From Candidatus Aenigmatarchaeota archaeon (GTDB lineage: Archaea > Aenigmatarchaeota > Aenigmatarchaeia > QMZP01): a stretch of DNA of 46,981 bases. Below are positions 535 through 26,818 of this stretch, piece after piece. The notes under the pieces are model-generated. The model did no database searches. It saw only the letters and a list, made by a program, of their open reading frames with translations, and was not told the DNA's origin. A program made the translations under genes and the position numbers. Position 1 is the first letter of the stretch, and each line of letters begins with the position of its first letter. The stretch spans positions 1 to 46,981 of the forward strand of contig JAPLVB010000011.1 in NCBI GenBank assembly GCA_026397335.1, given 5' to 3'.

Positions 535-2256
535 ATGGCAAAAGTAAAGGAACCCCCAGAAGAACTGCAGAGGCAGAAAGAGGACATAGAAAACCTGCTC
601 TCCTCTCTTGAAGCAGGTTTTGCTGAAGGCAGCATAACTCAGGAGCATTACAAAGAGGTAAAGCAAAAAAACCTGGAGAAGCTGGAAGAGATAAAAAAGA
701 AACTGAAGCTGTCTGAAAAACAAGCCCAGAAAAAGGCCGAGAATGAAGCTCCTGAAAAAGCAGAAGCTCAGCCAAAGGAACCGCTGCCAAAGGAGGAAAA
801 GAAGGAAGAAAAGAAGGAAGAAAAGAAGGAAGAAAAGAAGCCCGGAATACTGGGGGAACTCTCCTCGAAAATATCCGGCGAGAGGGAATCAAACGAGGAA
901 AAAATAAAGGAAAAGATAATAATGGAGTTCTCGCCCAAGATAGAAAAAATCAACATCCGGCTTGTTAAGCTTAAGGCCTTTCTGGATGCAATGAAAGAGG
1001 ACAAAACGGGTGAGAGGGAGAATACCCAGCATATAAATGAAGAGCTTGGCGAGACGCGCTCTGCCCTGAGCAGCATAGAGGGCAGGCTCAGCGAGATGGA
1101 AATGAAGCTTGAGGATGCGACAGAGACGCTGGCAGACCTAAAGCCCCAGAGATTTGCAAAGGAGATTCAAAAGAAAGAAGAAGAGCTCAAGATGCACGAA
1201 GCAAGGCTGGAGAAACTGGATGACATGAACTCCACCATTCTCAAGAGGGTTAACCAGATACAAATCATTCTTGAGAAACTCGGGAACATAGAAAGCATAG
1301 CCACGATGACGAAAGACATCTCTAAAAAGCTCGTGTCAATAGACGACAAGGAGAAGAAGATAACAAGGCTTGCAGACAAGATAGATAACATGTTCGTGGA
1401 AATAAACAAGAGGCTTGAGGAATTCATGTTCTACAAAGCCAAGCAGGACTCCCTTGACGACCTTTCAAAGGAAATGCTCAAATCCATGGACGAACTGACA
1501 ACAAAACTCACAAGATACGCTGAGAAAGATGACCTGGAGATTCTCAGAGACACGTTGGAAAACAAGATTAATACAATCATGAAGGAGGGAGGAACTCCAA
1601 GCGTCTCCAAGCAGTTGCAGCAGGAAAAATCTGAGGTAGAATCGCTGATGAAACTGCTTGATGAGCAGTTCAAGAAAGGCCAGATGTCCAAGAAAGACTA
1701 TGAGAAAGCAAAAGAAGCCAATCTGCAAAAAATCAGGGAGATGGAAGCAACACCGCAAAAAGCAGCACTTCCAATCCCGGCAGAGAGCGAGGAAACCATA
1801 ATAGAGCAGGCGCCTGCGATTGAAGAAGAGATTCCAGAATCGCAATCCGGACTAGAGCAGGCAGCGAAAATTGCCCAGGCTCCAGAAATCCAGCCAACTC
1901 CGAAGAAAGAAGCGAAGGAGGAAAAACAGGCTCCTGCCAAACCAACACCCAGCAAGAAAGTCGCTTCCCGCGAGGAAGAGCCTAGCCAGAAGACAGTTAC
2001 AAAGGAAGAAATCGCGAAAAAAATAGGAAAAGCGAAAGAAGGCGGAAAGGAGACAGAAGTCGGCAAAGCCGACTTCCAACCAAAATCCGCCTTCATTTCA
2101 GAGTCTGAGAAGCCAATCCAGCTAAAGTCTGCGAAACCGCCTGACAAGAAACAGAAGATGCTTGCCGACCTTGAATATTCATTCAGAAAGGGTCTCATAA
2201 GCCAGAAGGCCTATGAAACTGCTCAGAAGATGATAATGGCAAAAAGTTTTGACTAA
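535..2256 (+). CDS. 573-aa coiled-coil protein with three SHOCT-like motifs and a KEEKK low-complexity run
   Basis: E/K/L-rich heptad-like sequence throughout. The pattern L..L...F..G.I[ST]...Y...K...L occurs three times, at about aa 18-50, 368-400 and 541-573. No TM segment or Walker motif. Confidence 0.6.
   Translation: MAKVKEPPEELQRQKEDIENLLSSLEAGFAEGSITQEHYKEVKQKNLEKLEEIKKKLKLSEKQAQKKAENEAPEKAEAQPKEPLPKEEKKEEKKEEKKEEKKPGILGELSSKISGERESNEEKIKEKIIMEFSPKIEKINIRLVKLKAFLDAMKEDKTGERENTQHINEELGETRSALSSIEGRLSEMEMKLEDATETLADLKPQRFAKEIQKKEEELKMHEARLEKLDDMNSTILKRVNQIQIILEKLGNIESIATMTKDISKKLVSIDDKEKKITRLADKIDNMFVEINKRLEEFMFYKAKQDSLDDLSKEMLKSMDELTTKLTRYAEKDDLEILRDTLENKINTIMKEGGTPSVSKQLQQEKSEVESLMKLLDEQFKKGQMSKKDYEKAKEANLQKIREMEATPQKAALPIPAESEETIIEQAPAIEEEIPESQSGLEQAAKIAQAPEIQPTPKKEAKEEKQAPAKPTPSKKVASREEEPSQKTVTKEEIAKKIGKAKEGGKETEVGKADFQPKSAFISESEKPIQLKSAKPPDKKQKMLADLEYSFRKGLISQKAYETAQKMIMAKSFD
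790..840 (+). repeat. 12-nt tandem repeat (gaaggaagaaaa, about 4 units) encoding (KEEK)n
   Basis: Perfect units at 801-812, 813-824 and 825-836, with a partial unit on each side. Lies inside the ORF 535-2256. Confidence 0.9.
2038..2094. repeat. 57-nt nested-hairpin element (copy A) inside a coding sequence
   Basis: Outer stem GAAGGCGGA (2038-2046) pairs with TCCGCCTTC (2086-2094). Inner hairpin is GAAGTCGGC-AAA-GCCGACTTC (2056-2076). It has the same architecture and length as 10189-10245. Confidence 0.8.
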
Positions 2257-2272: not shown

Positions 2273-2746
2273 ATGGAAAACAAAGAAAGGAAAATCGGGT
2301 TTATTGTTGTTTTCTTCTTCATGCTGTTCCTGTGGATGCTTCTGACAGGATTCACATACGAGGAAATTATAGCAGGATCCATAGCATCGCTTATAACAGC
2401 TGCCATGAGTTATAGACTTTTTACTTGGGAAAAAAGCTACCCAAGGCGTCTCCTCTGGCTGCTGGCTTATATCCCTTACTACATTTATGCAGAAATTATG
2501 GCCCATTTGGAAGTTATCTACCTTATCCTTACCGGAAAAATAAACCCCGGCATTGTTGAGATTGACAATCCCCACAGCTCGGATTTCGGAACAACCGCCC
2601 TGGCGAATTCAATAACAATGACCCCTGGAACTCTCACGCTCGAGACAAAGCCGGGCAAGCTTTACATTCACTGGCTTAACATGAAGAAAGACAAAAAGGC
2701 AATAGCAAGCGGATTTGAAAGGTTCCTCAGAATGGTGTGGCAATGA
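2273..2746 (+). CDS. mrpE: Mrp/Mnh-type cation:proton antiporter subunit E
   Basis: 157 aa with N-terminal TM helices, then ANSITMTPGTLTLE...LYIHWLN, which matches the conserved MnhE core. Confidence 0.75.
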   Translation: MENKERKIGFIVVFFFMLFLWMLLTGFTYEEIIAGSIASLITAAMSYRLFTWEKSYPRRLLWLLAYIPYYIYAEIMAHLEVIYLILTGKINPGIVEIDNPHSSDFGTTALANSITMTPGTLTLETKPGKLYIHWLNMKKDKKAIASGFERFLRMVWQ

Positions 2747-3000
2747 CATATGAAATCCCGATATATATCCTGCTCGCAGCCTCGGCGTTCTGCCTTGTGC
2801 GCATAGCAAGGGGGCCTTCCATCCCCGACAGGGTGCTGGCTACAGACACATTCCTCTCAATAATAATATCCATAATGGTTTTGCTCTCTCTGGAAACAAA
2901 CGATTTCCTGATGGACATCGCAATAGTTTATGCAGTGCTGGGTTTCCTTGGCACAATAGCAGTATCAAAATATCTGGAAGTAAGAAAGCTGGGTGAATGA
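2737..3000 (+). CDS. mrpF: Mrp/Mnh-type antiporter subunit F
   Basis: 87 aa, 3 TM, with an RIARGPSIPDRVLATDT motif typical of MnhF/PhaF. Overlaps mrpE by 10 nt. Confidence 0.75.
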   Translation: MAMTYEIPIYILLAASAFCLVRIARGPSIPDRVLATDTFLSIIISIMVLLSLETNDFLMDIAIVYAVLGFLGTIAVSKYLEVRKLGE

Positions 3001-3415
3001 TATGATAGGATGGATTCTGATATTTACAGGCTCTATAATATCAGTTATAGGAGCTTTAGGGCTGATCCGCTTCCCTGACATATACAGCAGAACTCATGCC
3101 CAGACAGTGGTCAATGTTGGGGGAACATGCGTCATACTTCTGGGAGTTTTTTTCCAGGCACCTTTCTTCTCTTTATACTCCGTAAAATCCATTCTCCTTA
3201 TAATCTTCATATTCCTCACCTCGCCCGTGGGCTCCCATGCTATTGCCCGCGCAGCCTACAAATCCGGGGTGAAGCCTAGGAAAATCCATGAAGATGAACT
3301 GGGATACAAAATAATCAAGGATGAAAAGCCGTTCGTTCGAGAGAAGGAATACGAAAAAACAAACCAATCAGGATATAAATTCAGAAAAAGAAGATTCTTC
3401 AAAAGGAGGCCTTAG
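2993..3415 (+). CDS. mrpG: Mrp/Mnh-type antiporter subunit G with a basic C-terminal tail
   Basis: GLIRFPDIYSRTHAQT motif typical of MnhG. Overlaps mrpF by 8 nt. Has an extra K/R-rich tail of about 45 aa. Confidence 0.75.
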   Translation: MNDMIGWILIFTGSIISVIGALGLIRFPDIYSRTHAQTVVNVGGTCVILLGVFFQAPFFSLYSVKSILLIIFIFLTSPVGSHAIARAAYKSGVKPRKIHEDELGYKIIKDEKPFVREKEYEKTNQSGYKFRKRRFFKRRP

Positions 3416-3417
3416 AA

Positions 3418-3457
3418 AGAAGGCATCTGCAGACGCCTTCTGTCGAAGTGCGCCTTC
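3418..3457. repeat. GAAGG/CCTTC hairpin element (copy G), 3 nt after the mrpG stop
   Basis: AGAAGGCATCTGCAGACGCCTTCT (3418-3441) is a 24-nt palindrome with one A/C mismatch. It is followed by a second GCGCCTTC arm (3450-3457). It shares the GAAAGAAGG 5' flank with copies A and C. Confidence 0.6.
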
Positions 3458-3469
3458 AATAGAGGTAAT

Positions 3470-8114: not shown

Positions 8115-8164
8115 ATTTATTTTTATGTTTGTCTCAATATAAATCAACGAGTTGCATTAATATT

Positions 8165-9172
8165 ATGGCACTGGCAGACTTCCAGGGAAGGATAAAGAAG
8201 CTGAGGAGCCTGATGGAAAAAAACAGGCTTGATGCCTGCCTCATTAACAGCAGGAATGATGTTTATTATTACACAGGAAATGACATAGGGGATTCCTGCT
8301 TCCTTCTAATCTCGGAAGCCAAGCCCTGTATTTTTGTCACATCTCTCAGCAACGAGATAGAGTCAGCCAAAGAGTTCAACGCCATTTTCATAAAAGGAGT
8401 TTCAGACATCTCAAAAAGATTAAAGAGATTCAGGAGAGTTGGGTTTGATGAGTATTCAACGAGTTATAAGGTTTTTTCAGATCTGAAAAAATCCAAACCG
8501 GTTCTGAAGCCATCAGCATCCATAATCAAGGAGCCAAGGATGGTAAAGGACGAATGGGAAATGGAGCAAATATCAAAAGCAGCGGGTATTACCGCAAAAA
8601 CAATGTCCAACCTTGGAGAGATTTTAGGCAAGTCTGAGACAGACCTCTCTGAACAAATAGAGTTATCATTCAGAAAAGCGGGAGCAAAGCCATCTTTCGA
8701 TACAATAATTGCTTCCGGAAAGCATTCAGCCTTTATCCATCACAAGCCAGACAAAGCCATGATAAAGCAGGATGATCTGGTAATAATTGACATTGGCGCC
8801 GTTTTCAACAGCTACTGCTCAGACATGACTAGGACCTTCTGCAAGAAGCCAGGCCCTAAGGAAAGGAAGATAATCGAAAACATATCAGGAATCCAAGGTG
8901 AACTTATAGACATGGCAAAAGATGGGATCAAATACGATGACATGCAGAAGCGTTATGAAGCGCTCCTCAAAAGAAAGGGGTACAAGCTCTTGCATTCATT
9001 CGGTCATGGAATTGGGATAGGTGTTCATGAAAGGCCTGCAAAAGGCGATACTCTAAAATCAGGGATGGTAATTACAGTGGAACCGGGGACTTACATAAAA
9101 GGGTTTGGCGGCTACAGAATAGAAGATATGGTAATTGTAAGGAAGGGGAGATCCAAAATCCTTACAAGATGA
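8165..9172 (+). CDS. M24B Xaa-Pro aminopeptidase/dipeptidase
   Basis: DIGAVFNSYCSDMTRT, HSFGHGIGIGVHERP and EPGTYI...GGYRIEDMV metal-ligand motifs. The ATG at 8165 is preferred over 8129. Confidence 0.85.
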   Translation: MALADFQGRIKKLRSLMEKNRLDACLINSRNDVYYYTGNDIGDSCFLLISEAKPCIFVTSLSNEIESAKEFNAIFIKGVSDISKRLKRFRRVGFDEYSTSYKVFSDLKKSKPVLKPSASIIKEPRMVKDEWEMEQISKAAGITAKTMSNLGEILGKSETDLSEQIELSFRKAGAKPSFDTIIASGKHSAFIHHKPDKAMIKQDDLVIIDIGAVFNSYCSDMTRTFCKKPGPKERKIIENISGIQGELIDMAKDGIKYDDMQKRYEALLKRKGYKLLHSFGHGIGIGVHERPAKGDTLKSGMVITVEPGTYIKGFGGYRIEDMVIVRKGRSKILTR

Positions 9173-9181
9173 TTCTGGAAA

Positions 9182-9240
9182 GAAGGTGGATTTCAGTTAG
9201 AAGGTGTCTCTTGACACCTTCAGTCTAACGTTCCACCTTC
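9182..9240. repeat. 59-nt nested-hairpin element (copy C) between convergent genes
   Basis: Outer stem GAAGGTGGA (9182-9190) pairs with TCCACCTTC (9232-9240). Inner hairpin GAAGGTGTC-TCTT-GACACCTTC (9200-9221) is identical to 16640-16661. Confidence 0.85.
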
Positions 9241-9249
9241 AACCTCAAA

Positions 9250-9546
9250 CTAAACAACGCCTTCTTTCGCTTTCTTCGTTTCCTCTTCCTCAACAGGAGC
9301 TGTCACATGCTTTATTATGACTATATCCCCTATTGCCTGGACCATCGGGAAAGGCACGATAAGACCTTTCTTGTTCCCCACCATTTTTGAAAGGTAGGAA
9401 CCCTTCATGGCGTTTATAACAAGAGACCTAAGCTTGAACCTCTTTATGTCACACTCGACATCCTCAACCTTTCCGCAGTACAATCCCTTGTCAGTGAAAA
9501 CATCCTTTGACCATGTCTGGGAAACGCTGGATATCCTGATAGCCAT
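9250..9546 (-). CDS. PRC-barrel domain protein
   Basis: About 98 aa with a V..KGLY.GKVEDVE.D......L.I layout typical of archaeal PRC-barrel proteins. The ATG at 9546 is preferred. Confidence 0.55.
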   Translation of the reverse strand: MAIRISSVSQTWSKDVFTDKGLYCGKVEDVECDIKRFKLRSLVINAMKGSYLSKMVGNKKGLIVPFPMVQAIGDIVIIKHVTAPVEEEETKKAKEGVV

Positions 9547-9719
9547 ATAATCACCCCATTTCTTGGAAAGACGGCTTTGCTCACGCAAAATAAGCCGTCG
9601 ATTGAACGGTTACCCTAATACCATTCACAATATACTAATATTGCGGGAATGCTTATAAAAGTATTGTGTAACCAGCATAATCTAACGCTATTCCTTCTTG
9701 AACCGTGACAAAAATTGAG

Positions 9720-9852
9720 CGCTGGGAGAGGGATTTGAACCCTCGCGTGCTTTCGCACACAGGTTGTTTGCAATTTTCCGTTAACGCTTTTGCGCGAAGC
9801 GGAAAAGGGTTATAGCAAACCTGCGCCTTAAACCTAGCTCGGCCATCCCAGC
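9720..9852 (-). tRNA. tRNA-Ser(GCU), class II, with an intron of about 47 nt at the canonical 37/38 position
   Basis: Sense strand reads GCTGGGA...CAGGT-TTGCTA[intron]A-ACCTG, with variable arm TGTGCGAAAGCACGC, T-arm GAGGG-TTCAAAT-CCCTC, then TCCCAGC-G. Confidence 0.8.
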
Positions 9853-9870: not shown

Positions 9871-9943
9871 TGGACCGACCGGGATTTGAACCCGGAGCCT
9901 CTGCCATGCCGAGACAGCGATCTACCAGTTGATCTATCGGCCC
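9871..9943 (-). tRNA. tRNA-Ala(GGC), intron-less, G3:U70 present, C at position 33
   Basis: The 73-nt sense sequence GGGCCGATAGATCAACTGGTAGATCGCTGTCTCGGCATGGCAGAGGCTCCGGGTTCAAATCCCGGTCGGTCCA fits standard numbering exactly. Confidence 0.85.
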
Positions 9944-9944
9944 G

Positions 9945-10050
9945 TGGGTCGGGGCAGAATTGAACTGCCGACCTCTGCCTTGTAAGGGCAGCGTCTCAGT
10001 CGGAAAGGCGTCCTTCGGACGTCCACCTATAACCACTAGACCACCGACCC
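9945..10050 (-). tRNA. tRNA-Val(UAC) with a 32-nt intron inside the D-arm (21/22 to 23/24)
   Basis: Sense strand reads GGGTCGG-TG-GTCT-AGTGGTTAT-AG[GTGGACGTCCGAAGGACGCCTTTCCGACTGAG]AC-G-CTGCC-CTTACAA-GGCAG..GGCAG-TTCAATT-CTGCC-CCGACCC-A. Confidence 0.75.
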
Positions 10051-10123: not shown

Positions 10124-10271
10124 GCATCAGTAGTCTAGTGGCAGGACACAGGCTTCCCAAGCCTGTAATGCGGGTTCGATTCGAGATTGAAGGCGGAACG
10201 ATAGAGAGAAGGCGCCGAAGCGCCTTCCAGCCGAAATCCGCCTTCCTTCCAAGAAACTCCCGCCTGATGCA
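10124..10271 (+). tRNA. tRNA-Gly(CCC) with a 77-nt intron at the T-loop/T-stem junction (60/61 or 61/62)
   Basis: GCATCAG-TA-GTCT-AGTGGCA-GGAC-A-CAGGC-TTCCCAA-GCCTG-TAAT-GCGGG-TTCGATT-[intron 10182/3-10258/9]-CCCGC-CTGATGC-A. The mature length would be 71 nt. Confidence 0.8.
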
Positions 10272-12042: not shown

Positions 12043-12096
12043 GAAGGTGTTTTCATATCATTAACCATACAATCTGTTAATGATACGAACACCTTC
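12043..12096. repeat. 54-nt nested-hairpin element (copy K), 11 nt after the rtcA stop
   Basis: Outer stem GAAGGTGTT pairs with AACACCTTC. Inner stem ATCATTAAC pairs with GTTAATGAT. The inner hairpin is nearly identical to the one at 28218-28246. Confidence 0.8.
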
Positions 12097-14438: not shown

Positions 14439-15401
14439 ATGTCTTACTTGGATTTAAGCTACAAGCCGAAAAGTGATTTAGTCTGCGAATTCTATCTGGA
14501 GCCGGCAAAAGGAATTTCTATAAAGGACGCTGCTGAGCATATTGCAGGAGAATCCTCAATAGGCACATGGACTGAAGTCTCCACATCAACCCCGCGAATC
14601 AGGAAAATGGCTGCAAAAGTCTTCTCAATAAAAGGCAATTACGTGAAGATAGCATACCCCCAGGAGCTTTTCGAGCCTGGAAACATGCCGCAGATAATGA
14701 GCAGTATAGCAGGGAACATATTCGGGATGAAGGCTATCGAGAATCTAAGGCTTGAAGACATAGATTTCCCGAAAGAGATTGCGAAATCGTTCAAAGGCCC
14801 TGAAATCGGGCTTGATGACCTGAGAAAAATCAGCGGAATAAAAGGACGGCCAATCCTGGGAACAATATACAAGCCCAAGCTGGGCATGAATCCGAAAGAG
14901 ATGGAAGACCTTGCGTATAAAGTCTATTCCTCAGGGCTTGACTACACAAAGGACGACGAGAACCTCTGCTCAATGAGTTTCAACAAATTCGAGGACAGGG
15001 TTTCAAGGATTCTTGGCGTTGCTGACAGAATCAAAAGCGAGCAGGGGAGGACAGTTATTTACGCGGCAAACATAACCGCTCCTGCGCATGAAATGCTCAA
15101 GCGTGCGCAGTTCGTTAAGGATCATGGCGGGAAATGCATAATGATTGACATAATGACAGCAGGCTGGAGCGGTCTTCAGTACATAAGGGAACAGAACCTC
15201 GGGATGATAATCCACGCACACAGGGCAATGCACGCAGCCATCACGAGGAATCCCAAGCATGGGATTTCCATGCTTTCAATCGCGAAGGCCGCAAGGCTTG
15301 TAGGAGTGACAGCCCTGCACACAGGCACTGTTGTCGGAAAGATGGAAGGCCCAAAAGATGAGGTTATAGAGATAGACAATTTCCGCAAGTCGGATTTCTA
15401 A
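14439..15401 (+). CDS. rbcL: RuBisCO large subunit, form III-like, N-terminal 320 codons (ends at tandem TAA TGA)
   Basis: GTWTEV, GNIFG, TKDDEN (carbamyl-Lys), HAHRAMHAA and GKMEG (loop 6) are all present. Confidence 0.85.
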   Translation: MSYLDLSYKPKSDLVCEFYLEPAKGISIKDAAEHIAGESSIGTWTEVSTSTPRIRKMAAKVFSIKGNYVKIAYPQELFEPGNMPQIMSSIAGNIFGMKAIENLRLEDIDFPKEIAKSFKGPEIGLDDLRKISGIKGRPILGTIYKPKLGMNPKEMEDLAYKVYSSGLDYTKDDENLCSMSFNKFEDRVSRILGVADRIKSEQGRTVIYAANITAPAHEMLKRAQFVKDHGGKCIMIDIMTAGWSGLQYIREQNLGMIIHAHRAMHAAITRNPKHGISMLSIAKAARLVGVTALHTGTVVGKMEGPKDEVIEIDNFRKSDF

Positions 15402-15416
15402 TGAATCAAAAAAATC

Positions 15417-15650
15417 ATGCCAAGCGCATCCGGTGGCTTTCATCCAGGACTTGTCCCGGACCTCCTGAAAATCCTCGGTAACGACTTGGTAATAACTTTC
15501 GGCGGCGGGCTATGGGGACATCCCGGAGGGCCTGAATCAGGCGTAAGAGCAATCAAGCAGGCAGTCGAATCTTCCATGCAGAAAATCCCTCTTGAGGAAT
15601 ACGCGAAAACACACAGGGAGCTGGCTCAAGCTCTCATGCAGTGGAAGTAG
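15417..15650 (+). CDS. rbcL: RuBisCO large subunit, C-terminal 77 codons, same reading frame as 14439-15401
   Basis: SASGGFHPG and FGGGLWGHPGG phosphate-binding motifs. It is separated from the upstream part only by TAA TGA ATC AAA AAA ATC. Confidence 0.8.
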   Translation: MPSASGGFHPGLVPDLLKILGNDLVITFGGGLWGHPGGPESGVRAIKQAVESSMQKIPLEEYAKTHRELAQALMQWK

Positions 15651-16562: not shown

Positions 16563-16606
16563 AAACCTCACAATATAAGATGGCTCATGCAAATAAATAT
16601 TAGTTT

Positions 16607-16661
16607 GAAGGCGAATGCCTTCTTTCGAACAGTTAGACTGAAGGTGTCTCTTGACACCTTC
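16607..16661. repeat. two tandem GAAGG/CCTTC hairpins (copy D) in a divergent intergenic region
   Basis: GAAGGC-GAAT-GCCTTC (16607-16622) and GAAGGTGTC-TCTT-GACACCTTC (16640-16661). The second is an exact 22-nt copy of 9200-9221. Confidence 0.85.
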
Positions 16662-16682
16662 TATCGGAAATCGGGTGGTATT

Positions 16683-22376: not shown

Positions 22377-22395
22377 GTTTGCACCCGAACCTTCC

Positions 22396-22474
22396 GATTG
22401 AAGTCGGCTCTAGCCGACTTCCTTCCAAGTGTTCGTTTGAAGGTGGCATGTAGCCACCTTCCTTCCAACAGTTC
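22396..22474. repeat. two tandem 39/40-nt hairpin units (copies E and F) in the intercistronic spacer
   Basis: GATT-GAAGTCGGC-TCTA-GCCGACTTC-CTTCCAAGTGTTC followed by GTTT-GAAGGTGGC-ATGTA-GCCACCTTC-CTTCCAACAGTTC. The stems differ by compensatory TC/GA versus GT/AC. Confidence 0.85.
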
Positions 22475-24983
22475 AATCCTCTTCTTTGAGAAGCTCGTAA
22501 AGCTTTATCTGCTCCTCCTGCCATTCCTTTATGTCTTTCTTGAGGTCTGCTATTTCCTCCCGCAGTTTTGAAATCTCCGCCTTGTCGGACTGCTGTTCTT
22601 CAAGCAGCTTTCTCATCATCTCCTCTTTATCCTCAGAGAGCCTCTTCTCGAGCCTTTTATCCTCAACGTTTACGTTCTCTATCATCTTCACAACCCTTGT
22701 TAACGCAGATTCCATACCCTTCACATATTCCTGCTGGCTGGAAACCCTTTTCTCAATCTCAGTCCTGAATTCCGCATTTTTAGCCTGCTCCTTTATAAGA
22801 TTCTGAAAATCAATATGGTGCTTTTCGACTTTTGAGCCGATGGCGGAGTCAATAGCCTGCAGCTGTTTCATCCGGGTTTCCGCCCCGGAGATCCTTTTAT
22901 CAGCAGAAACTTTCGAGGAGCTGAGCGCATTAAGCTGCTTGTTAAGGGCGGATGTTACCAAAGAAGATGTCCTGAGGCTGCTTTCCATGGACTTTACTTT
23001 CTCCAATAAGGCCTTTCTCTCTGAATAAATCTGGGATTCCATTCTTCCTAACTTAACATTTAAATCCTTGGAGAAGGAGCCCGATTTCTCAAGGCCTGTT
23101 GCGAGGGAATCAATCCTTTTCAGGGCATCTGATACTTCCTCCTCGTTTTTCTCTATTTTCTCTGAAGCAGAATACTCGTGTTTCTTAATCCTGCTGTCAA
23201 GGGACTTGGTGAACTCGTTCAGCCTGGCTATTGCCTGGACGGTGTTTCTTATATTCTCTGAAAACTTTGCCCTCTGCTCTGCCAGGTTCTTCTTCTCTGC
23301 AGATACATCCCCGGAAAGCCCGGAAATCCTTTGCCATGATTTTTCAGAAAGGCCGGTTATCTTGGATGAGAGGGCTTTCTGCTCCTCCCTTATTCCCCTC
23401 TCCAAGACAATCTTCATTTCAGCAACAGCCTTTTTCTCGGAAGCCACGTGCGAGCTGACATGCGAGATTCTGTTTTCAATATGATCATAAGATTCTGAAA
23501 GTTTTGAATCAAAATTCTCCTGCGATTCCTTGATTCTCTCATTTATCAGGGATTCTACATCCGCTATATCCCGCCTCTCGCCAGCAAGACTTTCATTAAT
23601 CTTGGCTATCCTGCCTGCAAACTCCTCATAAACCGCTTTGAGCCTGGCCTCGAGAAGTTCAGCATGCCTTTTCTGGTTCAAATCAGCATGCGCTTTCAGC
23701 TGCCCTGCCTTTGAGCTTATGCTCTCCTCAGCGCTTTTCCTGATTTCAGAAATCTTTCTGTCAAATTCAGCAATCGCCTTAAGCCTTCTTTCAATAAGCT
23801 CAACCTGCTTCTGGTCGCTTATCTCAATGTGCGATTTGAGCTGTCCCACTTTATAATCTATTGCCTCTGCTGCATGCTTCCTGACACCAGCAATCTCCTT
23901 CTCAAGCCTGCTTTCACGCAGGGAAACGGTTTTTTGGGATTCAGCTATCTTCCTGCTTATCAGGGATTCTATACTTCCCATTTCCTTTCTTTCGCTGGCA
24001 AGCCTCTCATTTATCTTGGCTACCCTGGCCGCAAAATCCTCATAAACAGCTTTCATCCGCGTTTCGAACAGTTCAGCCTGCCTTTTCTGGTTCAAATCAA
24101 AATGCGCTTTCAGCTGCCCTGTCTTTGAGCTTATGCTCTCATCAGCACTCTTCCTCAGCTCAGCCAGCCTCTTCTCAAGCTTCTCATCCTCAAGATTTAT
24201 GCTGTCCAGCCTCTTTGCGATTTTGGATACAGCGGAATCCAGCTCCTTTATTGAGGCCTGGTGGCCTGAGACTCTCTTCTCGATTTCAGCCCTGGAGAAT
24301 CCTGCATTCTCAAGCTGCTTCTTGAGAGAAACGGTGTTAACCTTGAGCTGCCTGACAAAAAGCGAGGTCCGGGAAAGATTCCTCTTCAGCTCCTCATGTG
24401 ATGCAGCCAGCACATTTACCGAGTCTGTCGCGTCTTGGAGAACCTCCTCTGAGGCTTCTGATATCTTCAGGGAAAGCCTGTCCTGTGCTGTTTTCAGCTG
24501 TGTTTCAAAATGACCTTTTGTCTCAGTCAGCCTGGATTCCAGCGCTTCGTCCTCTTTGGCTTCCTTCTCCCTCAACCTCTCTATATGGCTTTTTGAGAGG
24601 CTGGTCAGTTCACTGAGCTTTTTTATAACCTTCTCAGCCTCGAGAAGCCGGTTCTTAAGCGACTCATCTCCTGAGCGGATTTTTGAGAGATAGGAAGTAT
24701 GGATTTTGAGCTCCTGCTCAATGGCGGATATCTTCCTGGTTTCGGCCTTCAGCTCCGCGATCTGGTTTTTTATGGGAGCTGTCTCCTTGTCCACAAAATC
24801 CAGGATGCGCTTTCCGGCTTCCTCATAAATGACATAGGCTTCCCCGAGCTTCTGGCCAAGGAACCTTGTCCTCTCGATTAGAAATGCGCGATCCTTCTGC
24901 AGTTGTTCTATCAATCGCTTCTGGCTGTCAGAATTCTTCTTGAGCTTTTCTATCCCGGTGCTCAGCTCATCAATCTCTTTCAT
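22473..24983 (-). CDS. 836-aa giant coiled-coil protein with internal repeats
   Basis: Uninterrupted E/K/L/S-rich heptad sequence with a 138-aa-period internal duplication. No TM, signal peptide or NTPase motif. Confidence 0.65.
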   Translation of the reverse strand: MKEIDELSTGIEKLKKNSDSQKRLIEQLQKDRAFLIERTRFLGQKLGEAYVIYEEAGKRILDFVDKETAPIKNQIAELKAETRKISAIEQELKIHTSYLSKIRSGDESLKNRLLEAEKVIKKLSELTSLSKSHIERLREKEAKEDEALESRLTETKGHFETQLKTAQDRLSLKISEASEEVLQDATDSVNVLAASHEELKRNLSRTSLFVRQLKVNTVSLKKQLENAGFSRAEIEKRVSGHQASIKELDSAVSKIAKRLDSINLEDEKLEKRLAELRKSADESISSKTGQLKAHFDLNQKRQAELFETRMKAVYEDFAARVAKINERLASERKEMGSIESLISRKIAESQKTVSLRESRLEKEIAGVRKHAAEAIDYKVGQLKSHIEISDQKQVELIERRLKAIAEFDRKISEIRKSAEESISSKAGQLKAHADLNQKRHAELLEARLKAVYEEFAGRIAKINESLAGERRDIADVESLINERIKESQENFDSKLSESYDHIENRISHVSSHVASEKKAVAEMKIVLERGIREEQKALSSKITGLSEKSWQRISGLSGDVSAEKKNLAEQRAKFSENIRNTVQAIARLNEFTKSLDSRIKKHEYSASEKIEKNEEEVSDALKRIDSLATGLEKSGSFSKDLNVKLGRMESQIYSERKALLEKVKSMESSLRTSSLVTSALNKQLNALSSSKVSADKRISGAETRMKQLQAIDSAIGSKVEKHHIDFQNLIKEQAKNAEFRTEIEKRVSSQQEYVKGMESALTRVVKMIENVNVEDKRLEKRLSEDKEEMMRKLLEEQQSDKAEISKLREEIADLKKDIKEWQEEQIKLYELLKEED

Positions 24984-26818
24984 GACTTCAGCTCCCTAAG
25001 AAGCTCGCTTACCTTCACCCTCTCCCTCTTTATCCTCTCTTCCACATGCTTCCTCTCGGTAACAGTCTGGTTCAGGACGGATTCAAGCCGGGCCTTGTCA
25101 GCCGCGTTTTGAGCTTCAAGCATGGACTGCCTCTCATTAATGGCAGCAATATCACTCTCCATTTTTTTCACCATAACGGCAAGATTCTCCTTATCCGCAA
25201 GTTTCTTGCCAACGGCTTTCATGGAAATCTCCGTTTCTGTAAGCTTGTCTCTCAGGGGTCTTATGTCAGAAATAATCTTCTGGACGGCTTCGAGATTGTC
25301 TGAAAGCTTGTCAAACCTCGATTCCGCATCCCTCAGGTTCTGCTCAAGGACTATGGTGCGCTCCCTCTCCGCGGCCATCTTGGCATCCAGGCTCTTGGTT
25401 GCAGCAGCCAGATTCTCAGACCTCTTGGCAAACACGTCTTTGAGGTCAATCACCTTGTTTATTGTGGAAAACTGGTCGCTCATCTTCCTTGAAATATCGT
25501 TTATGGATGACTCGAATGTTTTCTGCCTTTCCTTCAGGCTGGCAATCGTATCCGTGTTTTTGCCTGAGTCCTTTTTGACAGCCTGCACATCATAATAAAC
25601 CTTTCTTTCTATATCCCTGGTCCTGTCCGCAATCCATTTCCTCAGGTTCTCGGGAGCCTCCATGTCCTCTATCATTCCAAGAATCTCCCTGTCCTTCTCA
25701 ACCAAAGCCCTTGCCTTCTCATCATTAAGCATAAGGCGCTTCTCTATCTCCTGCATCCTGTTCTCAAACAGCTCATTAACAACATCCTTTACGCTGGTCT
25801 CTATCATCCTCGGAGAGGCGAACTCCTGCATTTTTGCAAGCTGGTTCTGGTACTTCTCCATCATCTTGTCCATGCGCTTGTGAATGTTCATCTTGATGAT
25901 TGCAAGCCCCCCAAGGAACTTCGCCTCCTCTTCCGCAAACTTCTTGTAAAGCTTGTCCTTCTCGAGCCTGAGCTCGTTTATCGTTTCCCGGAATTTCTTG
26001 AGCTCCCTCACTTCCCCGTCCATGAGCGAGATTCTCTTTTCAAGCTCGTTTGTTGATTCCCTGTTGGCCTTCAGGCTGTTAATTATGGGATCTATCCTCT
26101 TCCTCATCTTCCTGCTAACTGTCTCCGGAATCAGTTCCTCCATAAGCTCGTCTGCGGAGAAAACTATCTTCTTGAGCTTCTGTATGTTTTCAGCACCCAG
26201 CTTGTCATTTATTTCCCTGAACTGTAACTCAAGCGCTTTCAGCTTCTCCAGCTCCTTGAGCTTGTCCTCTGCAGAAGTAAGCCTGTATTCGACTTTCTTG
26301 CTCATGTTGCTGAGCGCCATATTAATGGAATCAATAGTTTTGCGAACGTCATTAAGCTCGCTCTCAAAATCAACCTGCTCCCCAAAAGAAGCCAGCCCCT
26401 GGGAAACCGCTCCAGGCTGTTTTGGCTGGTATAGGGGGCTGCTCAATCTCTCGTTAATCTGGGCTATCTTATCACCCAAATCCTTTATCCTTTCAAGCTC
26501 CTTGAGCTTGTCAGATATCTCCCCAAGCTTGGGGTCAAACTTTTCCTTCATCAGGATGGCTACCTGTTTCTTGACCTCGTCTTTGTCCTTACCCGAAGAT
26601 ACTGACTCCTCAAGCTTTCTTATTTTTGCATCGAATTTTTCCCCCATATCCTTCAGGGCACTCTCTACCCCTGAATCAGGCTTCTGGTCAGATAGGCTCT
26701 CTATTATTTCAGCCAAGCCCTTGCTCTTGTCAGCAAGTTCTGCCTTCTCTTTCTCCAACTGCACGATTTTTTTCCTGCTTTCTTCAAGTTCCTTGTCAAC
26801 TAGCTGGCCTTCAGCCAT
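24980..26818 (-). CDS. 612-aa giant coiled-coil protein
   Basis: Heptad-like sequence throughout. Has a 4-nt ATGA overlap with the downstream gene. Confidence 0.65.
   Translation of the reverse strand: MAEGQLVDKELEESRKKIVQLEKEKAELADKSKGLAEIIESLSDQKPDSGVESALKDMGEKFDAKIRKLEESVSSGKDKDEVKKQVAILMKEKFDPKLGEISDKLKELERIKDLGDKIAQINERLSSPLYQPKQPGAVSQGLASFGEQVDFESELNDVRKTIDSINMALSNMSKKVEYRLTSAEDKLKELEKLKALELQFREINDKLGAENIQKLKKIVFSADELMEELIPETVSRKMRKRIDPIINSLKANRESTNELEKRISLMDGEVRELKKFRETINELRLEKDKLYKKFAEEEAKFLGGLAIIKMNIHKRMDKMMEKYQNQLAKMQEFASPRMIETSVKDVVNELFENRMQEIEKRLMLNDEKARALVEKDREILGMIEDMEAPENLRKWIADRTRDIERKVYYDVQAVKKDSGKNTDTIASLKERQKTFESSINDISRKMSDQFSTINKVIDLKDVFAKRSENLAAATKSLDAKMAAERERTIVLEQNLRDAESRFDKLSDNLEAVQKIISDIRPLRDKLTETEISMKAVGKKLADKENLAVMVKKMESDIAAINERQSMLEAQNAADKARLESVLNQTVTERKHVEERIKRERVKVSELLRELKS

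Follow-up and report, generated by a model that had tools for sequence, protein, structure and literature searches.

We have found that a tRNA-Gly(CCC) gene of an uncultured DPANN (Aenigmatarchaeota-like) archaeon is interrupted in its T-loop by a 77-nt intron that is itself a copy of a short hairpin repeat scattered through the genomes of this lineage. This observation links the unexplained gain of archaeal tRNA introns to a spreading palindromic element. The analysis started from a stretch of 46,981 nt (contig JAPLVB010000011.1), referred to below as the window, and was extended to syntenic metagenome loci and to related archaeal genome bins. A first-pass annotation of the window, made from sequence alone, had proposed that the gene carries a T-arm intron built around a 57-nt nested-hairpin element recurring elsewhere in the window, and that this element is mobile and splicing-dependent. 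The observation itself was confirmed and extends well beyond the window; the interpretation was supported only in part.

Removal of the 77 nt in silico yields a 71-nt sequence that ARAGORN calls a complete tRNA-Gly(CCC). The unspliced locus, by contrast, scores only 25.2 bits against the Rfam tRNA model (below the gathering score of 29), with a broken T stem and acceptor stem, and ARAGORN mis-calls it as 10125-10194. The intron site had been placed at 60/61 or 61/62 (10182/3-10258/9); in standard tRNA numbering it is 59/60 or 60/61, and the bulge geometry as well as the homologous introns favour 59/60, so that the coordinates shift one base to the left (10181/2-10257/8). Position 59/60 is listed among the non-canonical intron sites of archaea (PMC4090602).

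Ten syntenic metagenome loci (L055-L064) carry identical exons, with one compensating U:G change in the acceptor stem of L057. Eight of them have a fully read intron at this site, a ninth (L058) ends just inside one, and L061 is intron-less with exactly the predicted junction. The intron content varies between loci, consisting of either one GAAGG...CCTTC hairpin (about 41 nt) or two nested hairpins (77 nt). The 57-nt core described in the first-pass annotation is really two nested copies of a simpler unit of about 40 nt. Coordinates of all features are given in Table 1.

Table 1. Features of the tRNA-Gly(CCC) locus and copies of the repeat in the window
Position	Strand	Feature	Support
10124..10271	+	tRNA-Gly(CCC) gene with a T-loop intron; AT-rich promoter-like region upstream, HAD-hydrolase gene starting 3 nt downstream	ARAGORN and Rfam comparisons; identical exons in L055-L064
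10124..10180	+	Exon 1 (nt 1-59): acceptor 5' strand, D arm, anticodon arm (CCC), T stem 5' strand GCGGG, T-loop TTCGAT	In-silico splicing; intron-less allele L061 reads GGGTTCGATTCCCGCCTGATGCA
10181..10257	+	77-nt intron at 59/60; register ambiguous by one T (10182-10258 equally possible)	Folding and orthologous loci; listed site (PMC4090602)
10258..10271	+	Exon 2: U60, T stem 3' strand CCCGC, acceptor 3' strand CTGATGC, discriminator A	In-silico splicing
10189..10245	+	Nested-hairpin core: 9-bp outer stem GAAGGCGGA (10189-10197) / TCCGCCTTC (10237-10245); inner 8-bp hairpin GAAGGCGC-CGAA-GCGCCTTC (10208-10227); internal loops ACGATAGAGA and (right) CAGCCGAAA	Fold z = -5.5; covariance model hit of 73.5 bits; 99% of cells paired and 5 pairs with compensatory changes across 18 copies
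10181..10188	+	5' flank of the repeat unit, TCGAGATT; family consensus (C)GATT	Shared with 9241-9249(-), 22391-22399 and many copies in other loci
10246..10257	+	3' flank of the repeat unit, CTTCCAAGAAAC; family consensus YTTCCAGAA; AGAA at 10252-10255 can pair with T-loop UUC(G) at 10175-10178; ACU at 10256-10258 is the predicted 3' bulge holding the 3' splice site	Geometry compared by eye with 12 other 59/60 introns
2038..2094	+	Nested-hairpin copy translated in frame (EGGKETEVGKADFQPKSAF) inside the coiled-coil protein gene 535-2256	Covariance model hit of 69.7 bits; SHOCT-like motifs in the same frame before and after it
2031..2132	+	102-nt (34-codon) insertion relative to the closest orthologues, containing the copy above; boundaries uncertain by a few nt	Protein alignment: orthologues P0001-3 (83-84% identity) lack it; DNA alignment with loci L066-L068
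9168..9254	-	Intergenic nested copy (core 9182-9240) between convergent genes 8129-9172(+) and 9250-9588(-); homologous to the whole intron, flanks included; outer stem GGTGG/CCACC, compensatory relative to the intron	Covariance model hit of 83.4 bits
16603..16676	+	Rearranged copy in a divergent intergenic region: small hairpin GAAGGC-GAAT-GCCTTC followed by a unit with hairpin 16640-16661; loop TCTT flipped relative to AAGA in the 9200-9221 copy	Covariance model hit of 34.4 bits
3403..3459	+	Degenerate copy between the MnhG and histone-like genes (hairpin 3419-3440); the orthologous site in L066-68 holds a different single hairpin	Covariance model hit of 29.9 bits
22396..22429	+	Single-hairpin unit GATT-GAAGTCGGC-TCTA-GCCGACTTC-CTTCCAAG; antisense to both neighbouring genes	Hairpin count and flank comparison
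22436..22468	+	Second single-hairpin unit, GAAGGTGGC-ATGTA-GCCACCTTC-CTTCCAAC	Hairpin count and flank comparison
12043..12096	-	Possible long-stem variant (GAAGGTGTT...AACACCTTC followed by TCTCCA) in an intergenic region; membership uncertain	Covariance model hit of 11.7 bits
9945..10050	-	Neighbouring tRNA-Val(TAC) with a 32-nt D-loop intron (9997-10028), possibly a decayed unit	The same site in L057 carries a full nested element

The stems of the intron core are as described in the first-pass annotation. The copy at 2038-2094, noted there as a match in length, architecture and about two thirds of positions, is real: it is also 57 nt long, has the same architecture and identical outer stems, and is identical at 37 of 57 positions in an ungapped comparison. 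The flanks GATTGAAG and CTTCCTTCCAAG recur exactly at 22396-22403 and 22418-22429. Several copies had been missed, namely those at 9182-9240(-), 16603-16676 and 3403-3459, a second hairpin at 22439-22461 and possibly 12043-12096.

Whether the element recurs significantly genome-wide had been set beforehand as a test of the proposal; within the window, the recurrence is far above chance. At least seven copies lie in the window, which contains seven GAAG...CTTC hairpins with stems of at least 8 bp, against 0.475 expected (maximum of three in 200 simulations). A covariance model of the element gives three hits of 70-83 bits in the window (E-values of 1e-16 to 1e-19), and further hits, with multiple copies per contig, in three related archaeal genome bins. 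Independent copies in other genomes were found by pattern, by model and by synteny. Outside the window, copies occur in T-loop and D-loop introns of other tRNAs, in tRNA leaders, in a 5S rRNA and at the 5' end of a splicing-endonuclease (EndA) gene, within its reading frame. The unit was found in 59/60 introns of tRNA-Gly, tRNA-Lys(CUU), tRNA-Asp, tRNA-Val and a fifth tRNA, as well as in D-loop or anticodon-region introns of tRNA-Val (L057) and tRNA-Lys(UUU).

Comparison of orthologous sites shows presence/absence differences between relatives, as a mobile or proliferating element would show. Besides the tRNA-Gly intron (against L061) and the in-frame insertion lacking from the closest orthologues, the D-loop, leader and T-loop copies of tRNA-Val differ between syntenic loci. 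Homologues P0006, P0007, P0009, P0010 (twice) and P0013 of the coiled-coil protein carry element-derived peptides at the same or other linker positions. Loops are flipped between copies (AAGA versus TCTT), and antisense copies exist in intergenic DNA. In this sense the suggestion of a mobile element is supported, although 'mobile' rests on distribution and polymorphism only: no transposase was detected among 30 ORFs of the window scanned with Pfam, no terminal inverted repeat was found beyond the palindrome itself, and three filled/empty comparisons revealed no convincing target-site duplication, a possible GCGAAA repeat flanking the coding-sequence insertion.

The description of the element as 'splicing-dependent' is not supported as worded. 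Most copies lie where no splicing is expected, including intergenic DNA in both orientations, tRNA 5' leaders, a 5S rRNA loop and a protein-coding gene where the copy is translated in frame. Splicing, as inferred here, is what makes the tRNA copies tolerable, not what the element needs.

A strict hBHBh' motif (two 3-nt bulges separated by a 4-bp helix and flanked by helices) is not present in the window intron. The outer helix h (GCGGG:CCCGC) and the 3' bulge ACU are there, but the central helix has only three Watson-Crick pairs (UUC:GAA) plus a G:A mismatch, the 5' splice site lies in an ill-defined, irregular loop and h' is only 2 bp; several orthologues (L055, L057 and L059) are weaker still. 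The relaxed form (hBH/bulge-helix-loop; PMC5829648) does fit: minimum-energy folds keep the T stem plus a short helix and a 3' bulge, and the outer helix, the 3-nt 3' bulge and a 3-5 bp helix were found in all eight complete orthologous introns. L062 and L064 have a perfect UUCG:CGAA helix. The same geometry appears in five other 59/60 introns of the lineage, those of tRNA-Lys(CUU), tRNA-Asp and tRNA-Lys(UUU) in locus L022, of a tRNA in L031 (a related bin) and of tRNA-Val in L062; L062, L064 and the L022 and L031 introns come close to or reach the strict form. No EndA gene lies in the window. L031 encodes, at 2266-2898, an alpha4-like EndA (Pfam PF01974/PF02778) with a Lys-rich 6-aa insertion before the catalytic His, aligned to the loop region of the ARMAN-2 enzyme, which is where the loops that confer relaxed-BHB specificity sit (PMC5829648); judging from sequence alone, this enzyme may be able to cut relaxed motifs.

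We therefore interpret 10124-10271, with reasonable though not full confidence, as a working tRNA-Gly(CCC) gene whose intron body is one copy of a lineage-specific family of short GC-rich palindromic repeats. The unit is (C)GATT-GAAGGNNNN-loop-NNNNCCTTC-YTTCCAGAA, and here one unit sits inside the loop of another. In the pre-tRNA the T stem would be kept as the outer helix, T-loop U54-U55-C56 would pair with GAA in the 3' flank of the intron and the 3 nt before the 3' strand of the T stem (AC|U) would bulge out; the archaeal splicing endonuclease would cut this relaxed substrate and RtcB-type ligation would restore UUCGAUU. Membership of the intron body in the repeat family is demonstrated by the analysis, and spread and turnover at the DNA level are demonstrated in part, by filled and empty orthologous sites, nested copies, flipped loops and both orientations in intergenic DNA; splicing, for which there is no RNA evidence, the mechanism of mobility and the responsible enzyme are inferred. 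In this view, the repeat proliferates as DNA (REP/MITE/RPE-like), and copies survive where they do little harm: in spacers, tRNA leaders, rRNA loop tips, disordered protein linkers (read in frame) and tRNA genes, where the splicing endonuclease would remove them.

Insertion of the unit may have created this intron, or the unit may have landed in an older 59/60 intron; we rate the two as about equally likely, and each remains tentative. If the former is true, the hairpin unit is an intron-generating mobile element. Its conserved 3' flank (...CCAGAA plus about 3 nt) is complementary to the universal T-loop start (UUC), so that insertion between nt 59 and 60 would automatically build the central helix and the 3' bulge of a splice motif next to the T stem, of a kind that a broad-specificity EndA can cut. 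New tRNA introns would then be born in one step from a genome-wide palindromic repeat and lengthened by nested insertions, which would give a concrete mechanism for archaeal tRNA intron gain and 'transposition'.

The alternative, that the repeat merely invaded a pre-existing intron acting as a neutral safe harbour and plays no part in making introns, is suggested by tRNA-Lys(UUU) in L022, which has a 27-nt 59/60 intron with a clean hBHBh' motif (judged by eye) and no hairpin unit, by the tRNA-Asp and tRNA-Val 59/60 introns, which contain the unit plus much other sequence, and by the nested form, which shows that units do insert into existing intron sequence. On the other hand, in tRNA-Gly the unit with its family-typical flanks fills the intron from first to last base, both in the window and in the 41-nt single-unit orthologues, and the only orthologue without a unit (L061) has no intron at all. 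Units also appear in the D-loop, the leader and the T-loop of tRNA-Val in different relatives, in step with intron presence.

It is less likely that the hairpin is a functional RNA module (for example, a protein-binding or stabilising stem-loop) selected at the RNA level and spread by an RNA route, in which excised, circularised introns would be re-inserted into bulge-helix-bulge-like sites of other transcripts and copied back into DNA. Every copy inside a tRNA intron, 5S rRNA, tRNA leader or coding sequence is in sense orientation, stem mismatches in that orientation favour G:U (six) over A:C (one), stems keep pairing through compensatory changes, and nesting in hairpin loops would fit insertion into RNA loops; these facts leave room for such selection or such a route. 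However, antisense copies exist in intergenic DNA (22400 and 22439 in the window, 12776 in L066 and 376 in locus L046), copies show no consistent position relative to genes, loop sequences are not conserved and are sometimes inverted, and no reverse transcriptase was seen. Compensatory change is equally expected for a DNA palindrome, and the sense bias in tRNAs can be explained by selection for the orientation that supplies the GAA strand of the splice helix.

That the locus is a pseudogene inactivated by the repeat, with an intact copy elsewhere doing the work, is very unlikely. The motif in this copy is weak, standard tRNA finders do not call the gene and, since the analysis covered only the window of this genome, a second intact tRNA-Gly(CCC) gene cannot be excluded; yet both exons are perfectly conserved in nine intron-bearing syntenic loci whose neighbouring proteins differ by 10-40%, while the intron sequence changes freely, the one acceptor-stem change (L057) keeps pairing, the promoter-like region is conserved, and non-canonical multi-intron tRNAs are the norm in this lineage. 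Chance similarity of purine-rich or low-complexity sequence, conceivable because the 2038-2094 copy lies in a Lys/Glu-rich, GAA/AAG-rich coding region, is refuted by the covariance model E-values, the hairpin count, the independent copies in other genomes and the fact that the coding-sequence copy is an indel relative to orthologues.

Non-canonical EndA-dependent tRNA introns, including those at 59/60, are known from multi-intron tRNAs of Thermoproteales, Nanoarchaeota and DPANN (Marck & Grosjean 2003, as reviewed in PMC4090602; PMC5829648). The intron described here shares with them the position, restoration of the cloverleaf, the T stem as outer helix, a 3-nt 3' bulge and a short central helix, in a lineage with many disrupted tRNAs and a related EndA carrying an insertion where the specificity loops lie; it differs in its relaxed motif without a defined 5' bulge and in that its body belongs to a genome-wide repeat family rather than being unique sequence. 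In the 'transposed' tRNA introns of Thermoproteales (Fujishima et al. 2010, Mol Biol Evol 27:2233, cited via PMC4090602), closely similar sequences likewise occur in different tRNA genes and at different positions (T-loop, D-loop, anticodon region), with recent gain and loss among close relatives by an unknown mechanism. In the present case, in a different phylum (DPANN), the shared sequence also occurs outside tRNA genes, in intergenic DNA, leaders, 5S rRNA and coding sequence, which identifies a likely source element; to our knowledge this has not been reported for Thermoproteales.

Rickettsia palindromic elements (RPE; Ogata et al. 2000 and 2002; mentioned in PMC1779305) offer another parallel, one of behaviour only. 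They are short palindromic repeats inserted in frame into protein-coding genes and into RNA genes, tolerated in surface or linker regions and polymorphic between relatives; they are, however, bacterial, 100-150 bp long, unrelated in sequence (no homology is expected) and not known to be removed by splicing. REP/BIME and MITE-type repeats (for REPs in archaea, see PMC12306157), as well as mitochondrial GC clusters and double-hairpin elements, resemble the family as high-copy short GC-rich hairpins in an AT-richer genome that occur nested or in tandem, show loop inversion and are found in spacers and in rRNA variable loops. Here, neither a RAYT/IS200-type transposase nor a signature of terminal inverted repeats plus target-site duplication was found in the sequences examined, and copies are not restricted to extragenic DNA, as the REP definition requires; a link to EndA-spliced introns is not a known feature of those families.

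How archaeal tRNA genes acquire introns, and how near-identical introns come to sit in unrelated tRNAs, has been an open question since intron transposition was described in Thermoproteales with no mechanism. In this lineage the intron sequence can be traced to a repeat family that also lives outside tRNA genes, and close relatives preserve several states at one orthologous site (no intron, a one-unit intron and a two-unit nested intron), which makes the question testable with existing metagenomes and a recombinant endonuclease. The finding also explains why standard tRNA finders miss genes in DPANN genomes, and it adds an archaeal counterpart to the in-frame coding palindromes of Rickettsia.

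Other identities of the element were considered and set aside. Rfam finds nothing at the element. A kink-turn, C/D-box or loop-loop pairing in the internal loops was rejected: inspection by eye of 14 aligned copies showed no consistent GA/AG tandem, no C/D boxes and no covarying loop-loop helix. A pattern scan of IMG/VR gave one hit without the inner hairpin, which we take as chance, so that no association with viruses emerged. Among hits of the genome pattern scan, the bacterial ones, including six copies in one WOR-3 bin, are a different G-rich repeat, while those in Woesearchaeota, Thermoplasmata and Methanoperedenaceae lack the inner hairpin and score about 20-25 bits. An exact look-up of the protein encoded by the HAD gene found nothing on record. 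Two apparent coding-sequence copies, upstream of aIF2-gamma in L022 and between the DHH and S3Ae genes in locus L020, are, judging from the start sites, probably in untranslated spacers, and we did not count them as coding. Copies lie at 5' ends, at 3' ends and between co-directional genes, so that no single positional role, such as that of a terminator or stabiliser, fits.

In the window, the tRNA-Gly(CCC) gene reads GCATCAG-TA-GTCT-AGTGGCA-GGAC-A-CAGGC-TTCCCAA-GCCTG-TAAT-GCGGG-TTCGAT(T), followed by 77 nt of intron and then by (T)CCCGC-CTGATGC-A. ARAGORN calls only a distorted 70-nt gene at 10125-10194. The Rfam tRNA model does not reach its gathering score: with a lenient threshold it gives 25.2 bits (cut-off 29), with the T stem and the acceptor stem marked as non-pairing. 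After removal of the intron, ARAGORN finds a complete 71-nt tRNA-Gly(CCC). Since a T lies on both sides, the intron is at 59/60 or 60/61 in standard numbering; the site given in the first-pass annotation, 60/61 or 61/62, and its coordinates are one base off. Position 59/60 is a documented non-canonical archaeal intron position (PMC4090602). The minimum-energy fold of the precursor keeps all four tRNA arms and the nested hairpin (−65.6 kcal/mol, z = −6.5).

The window is archaeal. It encodes deoxyhypusine synthase, aIF5A, Dph2, RtcA, a beta-CASP RNase, form III RuBisCO, HMG-CoA reductase, Mnh subunits and POR, and one homologue of a window protein (P0015) is labelled Candidatus Aenigmatarchaeota. 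Three more tRNA genes, for Val(TAC), Ala(GGC) and Ser, lie head-to-head with tRNA-Gly.

The 57-nt core of the intron matches 2038-2094 in length and architecture, with identical outer stems. A short-word BLAST search and then a covariance model revealed more copies (see the table). In a direct count we found 7 GAAG...CTTC hairpins with stems of at least 8 bp in the window, while first-order Markov simulations gave 0.475 on average and never more than 3 in 200 runs. The observation made in the first-pass annotation, a tRNA-Gly(CCC) intron built around a hairpin repeat that recurs in the window, is confirmed, whereas its interpretation as a mobile, splicing-dependent element is supported only in part.

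Table. Locations of the tRNA genes, repeat copies and other features, with covariance model scores where a copy was scored
Feature	Location	Strand	Score (bits)	Remarks
tRNA-Gly(CCC) gene	window 10124-10271			
Sequence removed by in-silico splicing	window 10181-10257			77 nt
tRNA-Val(TAC)	window 9945-10050	-		32-nt D-loop intron, verified by in-silico splicing
tRNA-Ala(GGC)	window 9871-9943			
tRNA-Ser	window 9720-9852			133 nt
Repeat copy	window 9180-9242	-	83.4	Intergenic; homologous to the intron over its whole length, flanks included; compensatory outer stem GGTGG/CCACC
Repeat copy	window 10187-10247	+	73.5	The intron
Repeat copy	window 2036-2096	+	69.7	Inside a coding sequence
Repeat copy	window 16627-16672	+	34.4	Preceded by a small GAAGGC hairpin
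Repeat copy	window 3403-3459	+	29.9	Degenerate
Repeat copies	window 22400-22421 and 22439-22461	+	weaker	Two single hairpins; tandem pair at 22396-22468
Hairpins with inverted loops	window 9200-9221 versus 16640-16661; also L002 2939-2960			Identical stems
Hairpins at one orthologous intergenic site	window 3419-3440 versus L066 12776-12797			
Coiled-coil protein gene	window 535-2256			
Form III RuBisCO large-subunit gene	window 14439-15650			Stops at 15399-15404
Two large ORFs	window 22473-26818	-		836 and 612 aa
Extra hairpin	L064 about 2547-2610	-		Between tRNA-Gly and the HAD gene
EndA gene	L031 2266-2898	-		
tRNA upstream of EndA	L031 about 2905-3090	-		Multi-intron
5S rRNA	L022 3052-3200	+		149 nt instead of about 120 nt
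tRNA-Lys(CUU), Asp(GUC) and Lys(UUU)	L022 2715-2940, 4563-4745, 5207-5490	-, +, +		

A pattern scan of 185,579 species-representative genomes returned true members, which have nested hairpins with a GAAGG inner stem, only from three archaeal bins: ‘archaeon SMAG_U8442’ (seven copies), ‘Ca. Aenigmatarchaeota OBJ_0618_130150_110’ (three) and ‘uncultured archaeon ERP119294_co1_457’. The bacterial hits are chance matches or a different repeat. A different, near-identical repeat of about 90 nt (…CTTCA-GAAGGGGGAACTAAAGGGGGATG…CCCCCTAAATCCCCCTTC-TCCAAGGGGGATTTT), picked up by chance by the search pattern, occurs on six contigs (L004, L005, L009, L021, L026 and L040) of one bacterial bin, the WOR-3 bacterium bin JALSOY01. 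Across 18 copies of the family 99% of stem cells pair and five pairs show compensatory changes (22 cells); no shuffle out of 500 reaches the observed covariation score, and the alignment was also evaluated with RNAalifold. Such a pattern is expected for a DNA palindrome as much as for an RNA structure.

A metagenome scan with a 29-nt exon string gave 10 loci (L055-L064) that are syntenic with the window and whose neighbouring proteins are 57-91% identical. The exons are identical apart from a D-loop C/T change in L057 and L063 and a U:G-preserving acceptor-stem change in L057. At the T-loop site the loci differ. L060 has the nested form, with the outer stem changed compensatorily, and L064 has a nested form with a perfect UUCG:CGAA helix. 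L055, L056, L057, L059 and L063 have a single hairpin in a 40-41-nt intron, while L062 has one hairpin plus a second, unrelated stem, and a near-canonical hBHBh'. L058 ends just inside the intron and L061 has no intron (GGGTTCGATTCCCGCCTGATGCA). It follows that the gene is under selection, that the junction is confirmed, and that the 57-nt ‘element’ is one unit nested in the loop of another. In L064 an extra hairpin with a long loop (GAAGGCGATTC...GAATCGCCTTC) separates tRNA-Gly from the HAD gene; in the window these two genes are only 3 nt apart.

Folding of the T-arm mini-substrates always keeps the T stem, a 1-3-nt bulge just 5' of its 3' strand, and a 3-5-bp helix using T-loop nt 54-58. 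By eye, the four nucleotides lying 3 nt upstream of the T stem's 3' strand pair with T-loop 54-57 in all 13 introns at 59/60 that we inspected (the window copy, seven orthologues, Lys(CUU), Asp and Lys(UUU) of locus L022, a tRNA in L031 and Val of L062); five of them have four Watson-Crick pairs. The window copy has UUC:GAA plus a G:A mismatch and a poorly defined 5' side. It is therefore a relaxed hBH/BHL motif, not the strict one. Such motifs need endonucleases with an extra ‘specific loop’ (PMC5829648). In L031, which comes from a relative, a gene for an alpha4-like EndA (identified by Pfam hits), whose activity is inferred, carries a Lys-rich six-residue insertion just before the catalytic His, where the ARMAN-2 loop aligns. 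This gene lies directly downstream of a multi-intron tRNA.

Several lines of evidence indicate that the unit spreads at the DNA level. The reading frame of the coiled-coil protein gene runs through the coding-sequence copy, with SHOCT-like motifs on both sides. The three closest homologues (83-84% identity) lack about 34 residues at this point, and the DNA alignment with loci L066-L068 shows a clean 102-nt indel. Other homologues carry element-derived peptides (EGRRQETPSG, EGVVDAFQPSTPSG, KVSVDAFQP, GEGDTSIEGVRGRLPASSAF) at the same or other linker positions, and homologue P0010 carries two. The protein, of about 550 aa, is conserved in Aenigmatarchaeota (homologues P0001-P0017) and has three SHOCT-like motifs and no Pfam domain; its low-complexity linkers are repeated landing sites for the hairpin element.

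The neighbouring tRNA-Val has the full nested element in its D-loop intron in L057 but only a 32-nt intron in the window. In L059 and L055 it has no intron, but a nested or single unit lies in the 5' leader, and in L062 it has a roughly 150-nt 59/60 intron containing the unit. More generally, the intron content of the adjacent tRNA-Val, tRNA-Ala and tRNA-Ser genes differs between close relatives (the window and L055, L057, L059, L062 and L063), with introns appearing and disappearing in the D-loop, the anticodon loop and the T-loop, an indication of very fast intron turnover in this lineage.

Copies with the same flank orientation and identical stems have loops that are reverse complements of each other (AAGA against TCTT), a flip-flop typical of recombination within DNA inverted repeats. 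Hairpins at the same orthologous intergenic site in the window and in L066 differ at several stem positions although the flanking DNA is about 85% identical, which suggests replacement or gene conversion between copies. Flank-defined orientation is antisense to the neighbouring genes at 22400 and 22439 in the window, at 12776 in L066 and at 376 in locus L046. In L022 a single hairpin unit (GGAAGGCGAC-GAA-GTCGCCTTC-TTTCC) appears to be inserted at the tip of a helix of the 5S rRNA, for which Rfam gives two alternative alignments (113 nt at 49 bits and 149 nt at 56 bits). In L031 a nested copy lies within the first 40 codons of the EndA reading frame; the only in-frame starts are upstream of the element or inside it.

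Splicing itself, the enzyme or process that copies the unit, and the possible creation of the intron by insertion of the unit are all inferred. Two observations favour creation: the unit with its family-typical flanks fills the tRNA-Gly intron end to end, and the only unit-free orthologue is intron-less. Caution is warranted, since a unit-free 27-nt 59/60 intron exists in L022 tRNA-Lys(UUU) (by eye). All copies in tRNAs, 5S rRNA and coding sequence are in sense orientation, and stem mismatches show 6 G:U against 1 A:C; this leaves a minority case for RNA-level selection or an RNA-mediated route.

The intron has the sequence features of a relaxed EndA-type intron at a known position. The repeat behaves like REP/MITE-type palindromes and, in coding regions and RNA genes, like Rickettsia palindromic elements. 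However, it is not strictly extragenic, and no convincing target-site duplication and no transposase was found in the sequences examined. Full-text literature searches, which did not cover most subscription-journal papers, found no report linking tRNA introns to a genome-wide palindromic repeat, and none for Aenigmatarchaeota. The pattern of similar introns in unrelated tRNAs matches the ‘intron transposition’ of Thermoproteales, for which no mechanism is known (PMC4090602).

The three tRNA genes of L022 are invisible to ARAGORN and to Rfam at the gathering score. Lys(CUU) has two introns, Asp(GUC) has a 105-nt 59/60 intron and Lys(UUU) has apparently three introns; the first two were verified by in-silico splicing and the third only by eye. 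In the window, the form III RuBisCO large-subunit gene is broken by two adjacent in-frame stop codons (TAA TGA) where the syntenic orthologue in L059 has Tyr-Arg. The reading frame continues unchanged afterwards. This could be a pseudogene, a split gene or a sequencing error. Finally, the two large ORFs next to the tandem hairpin pair have no Pfam match.
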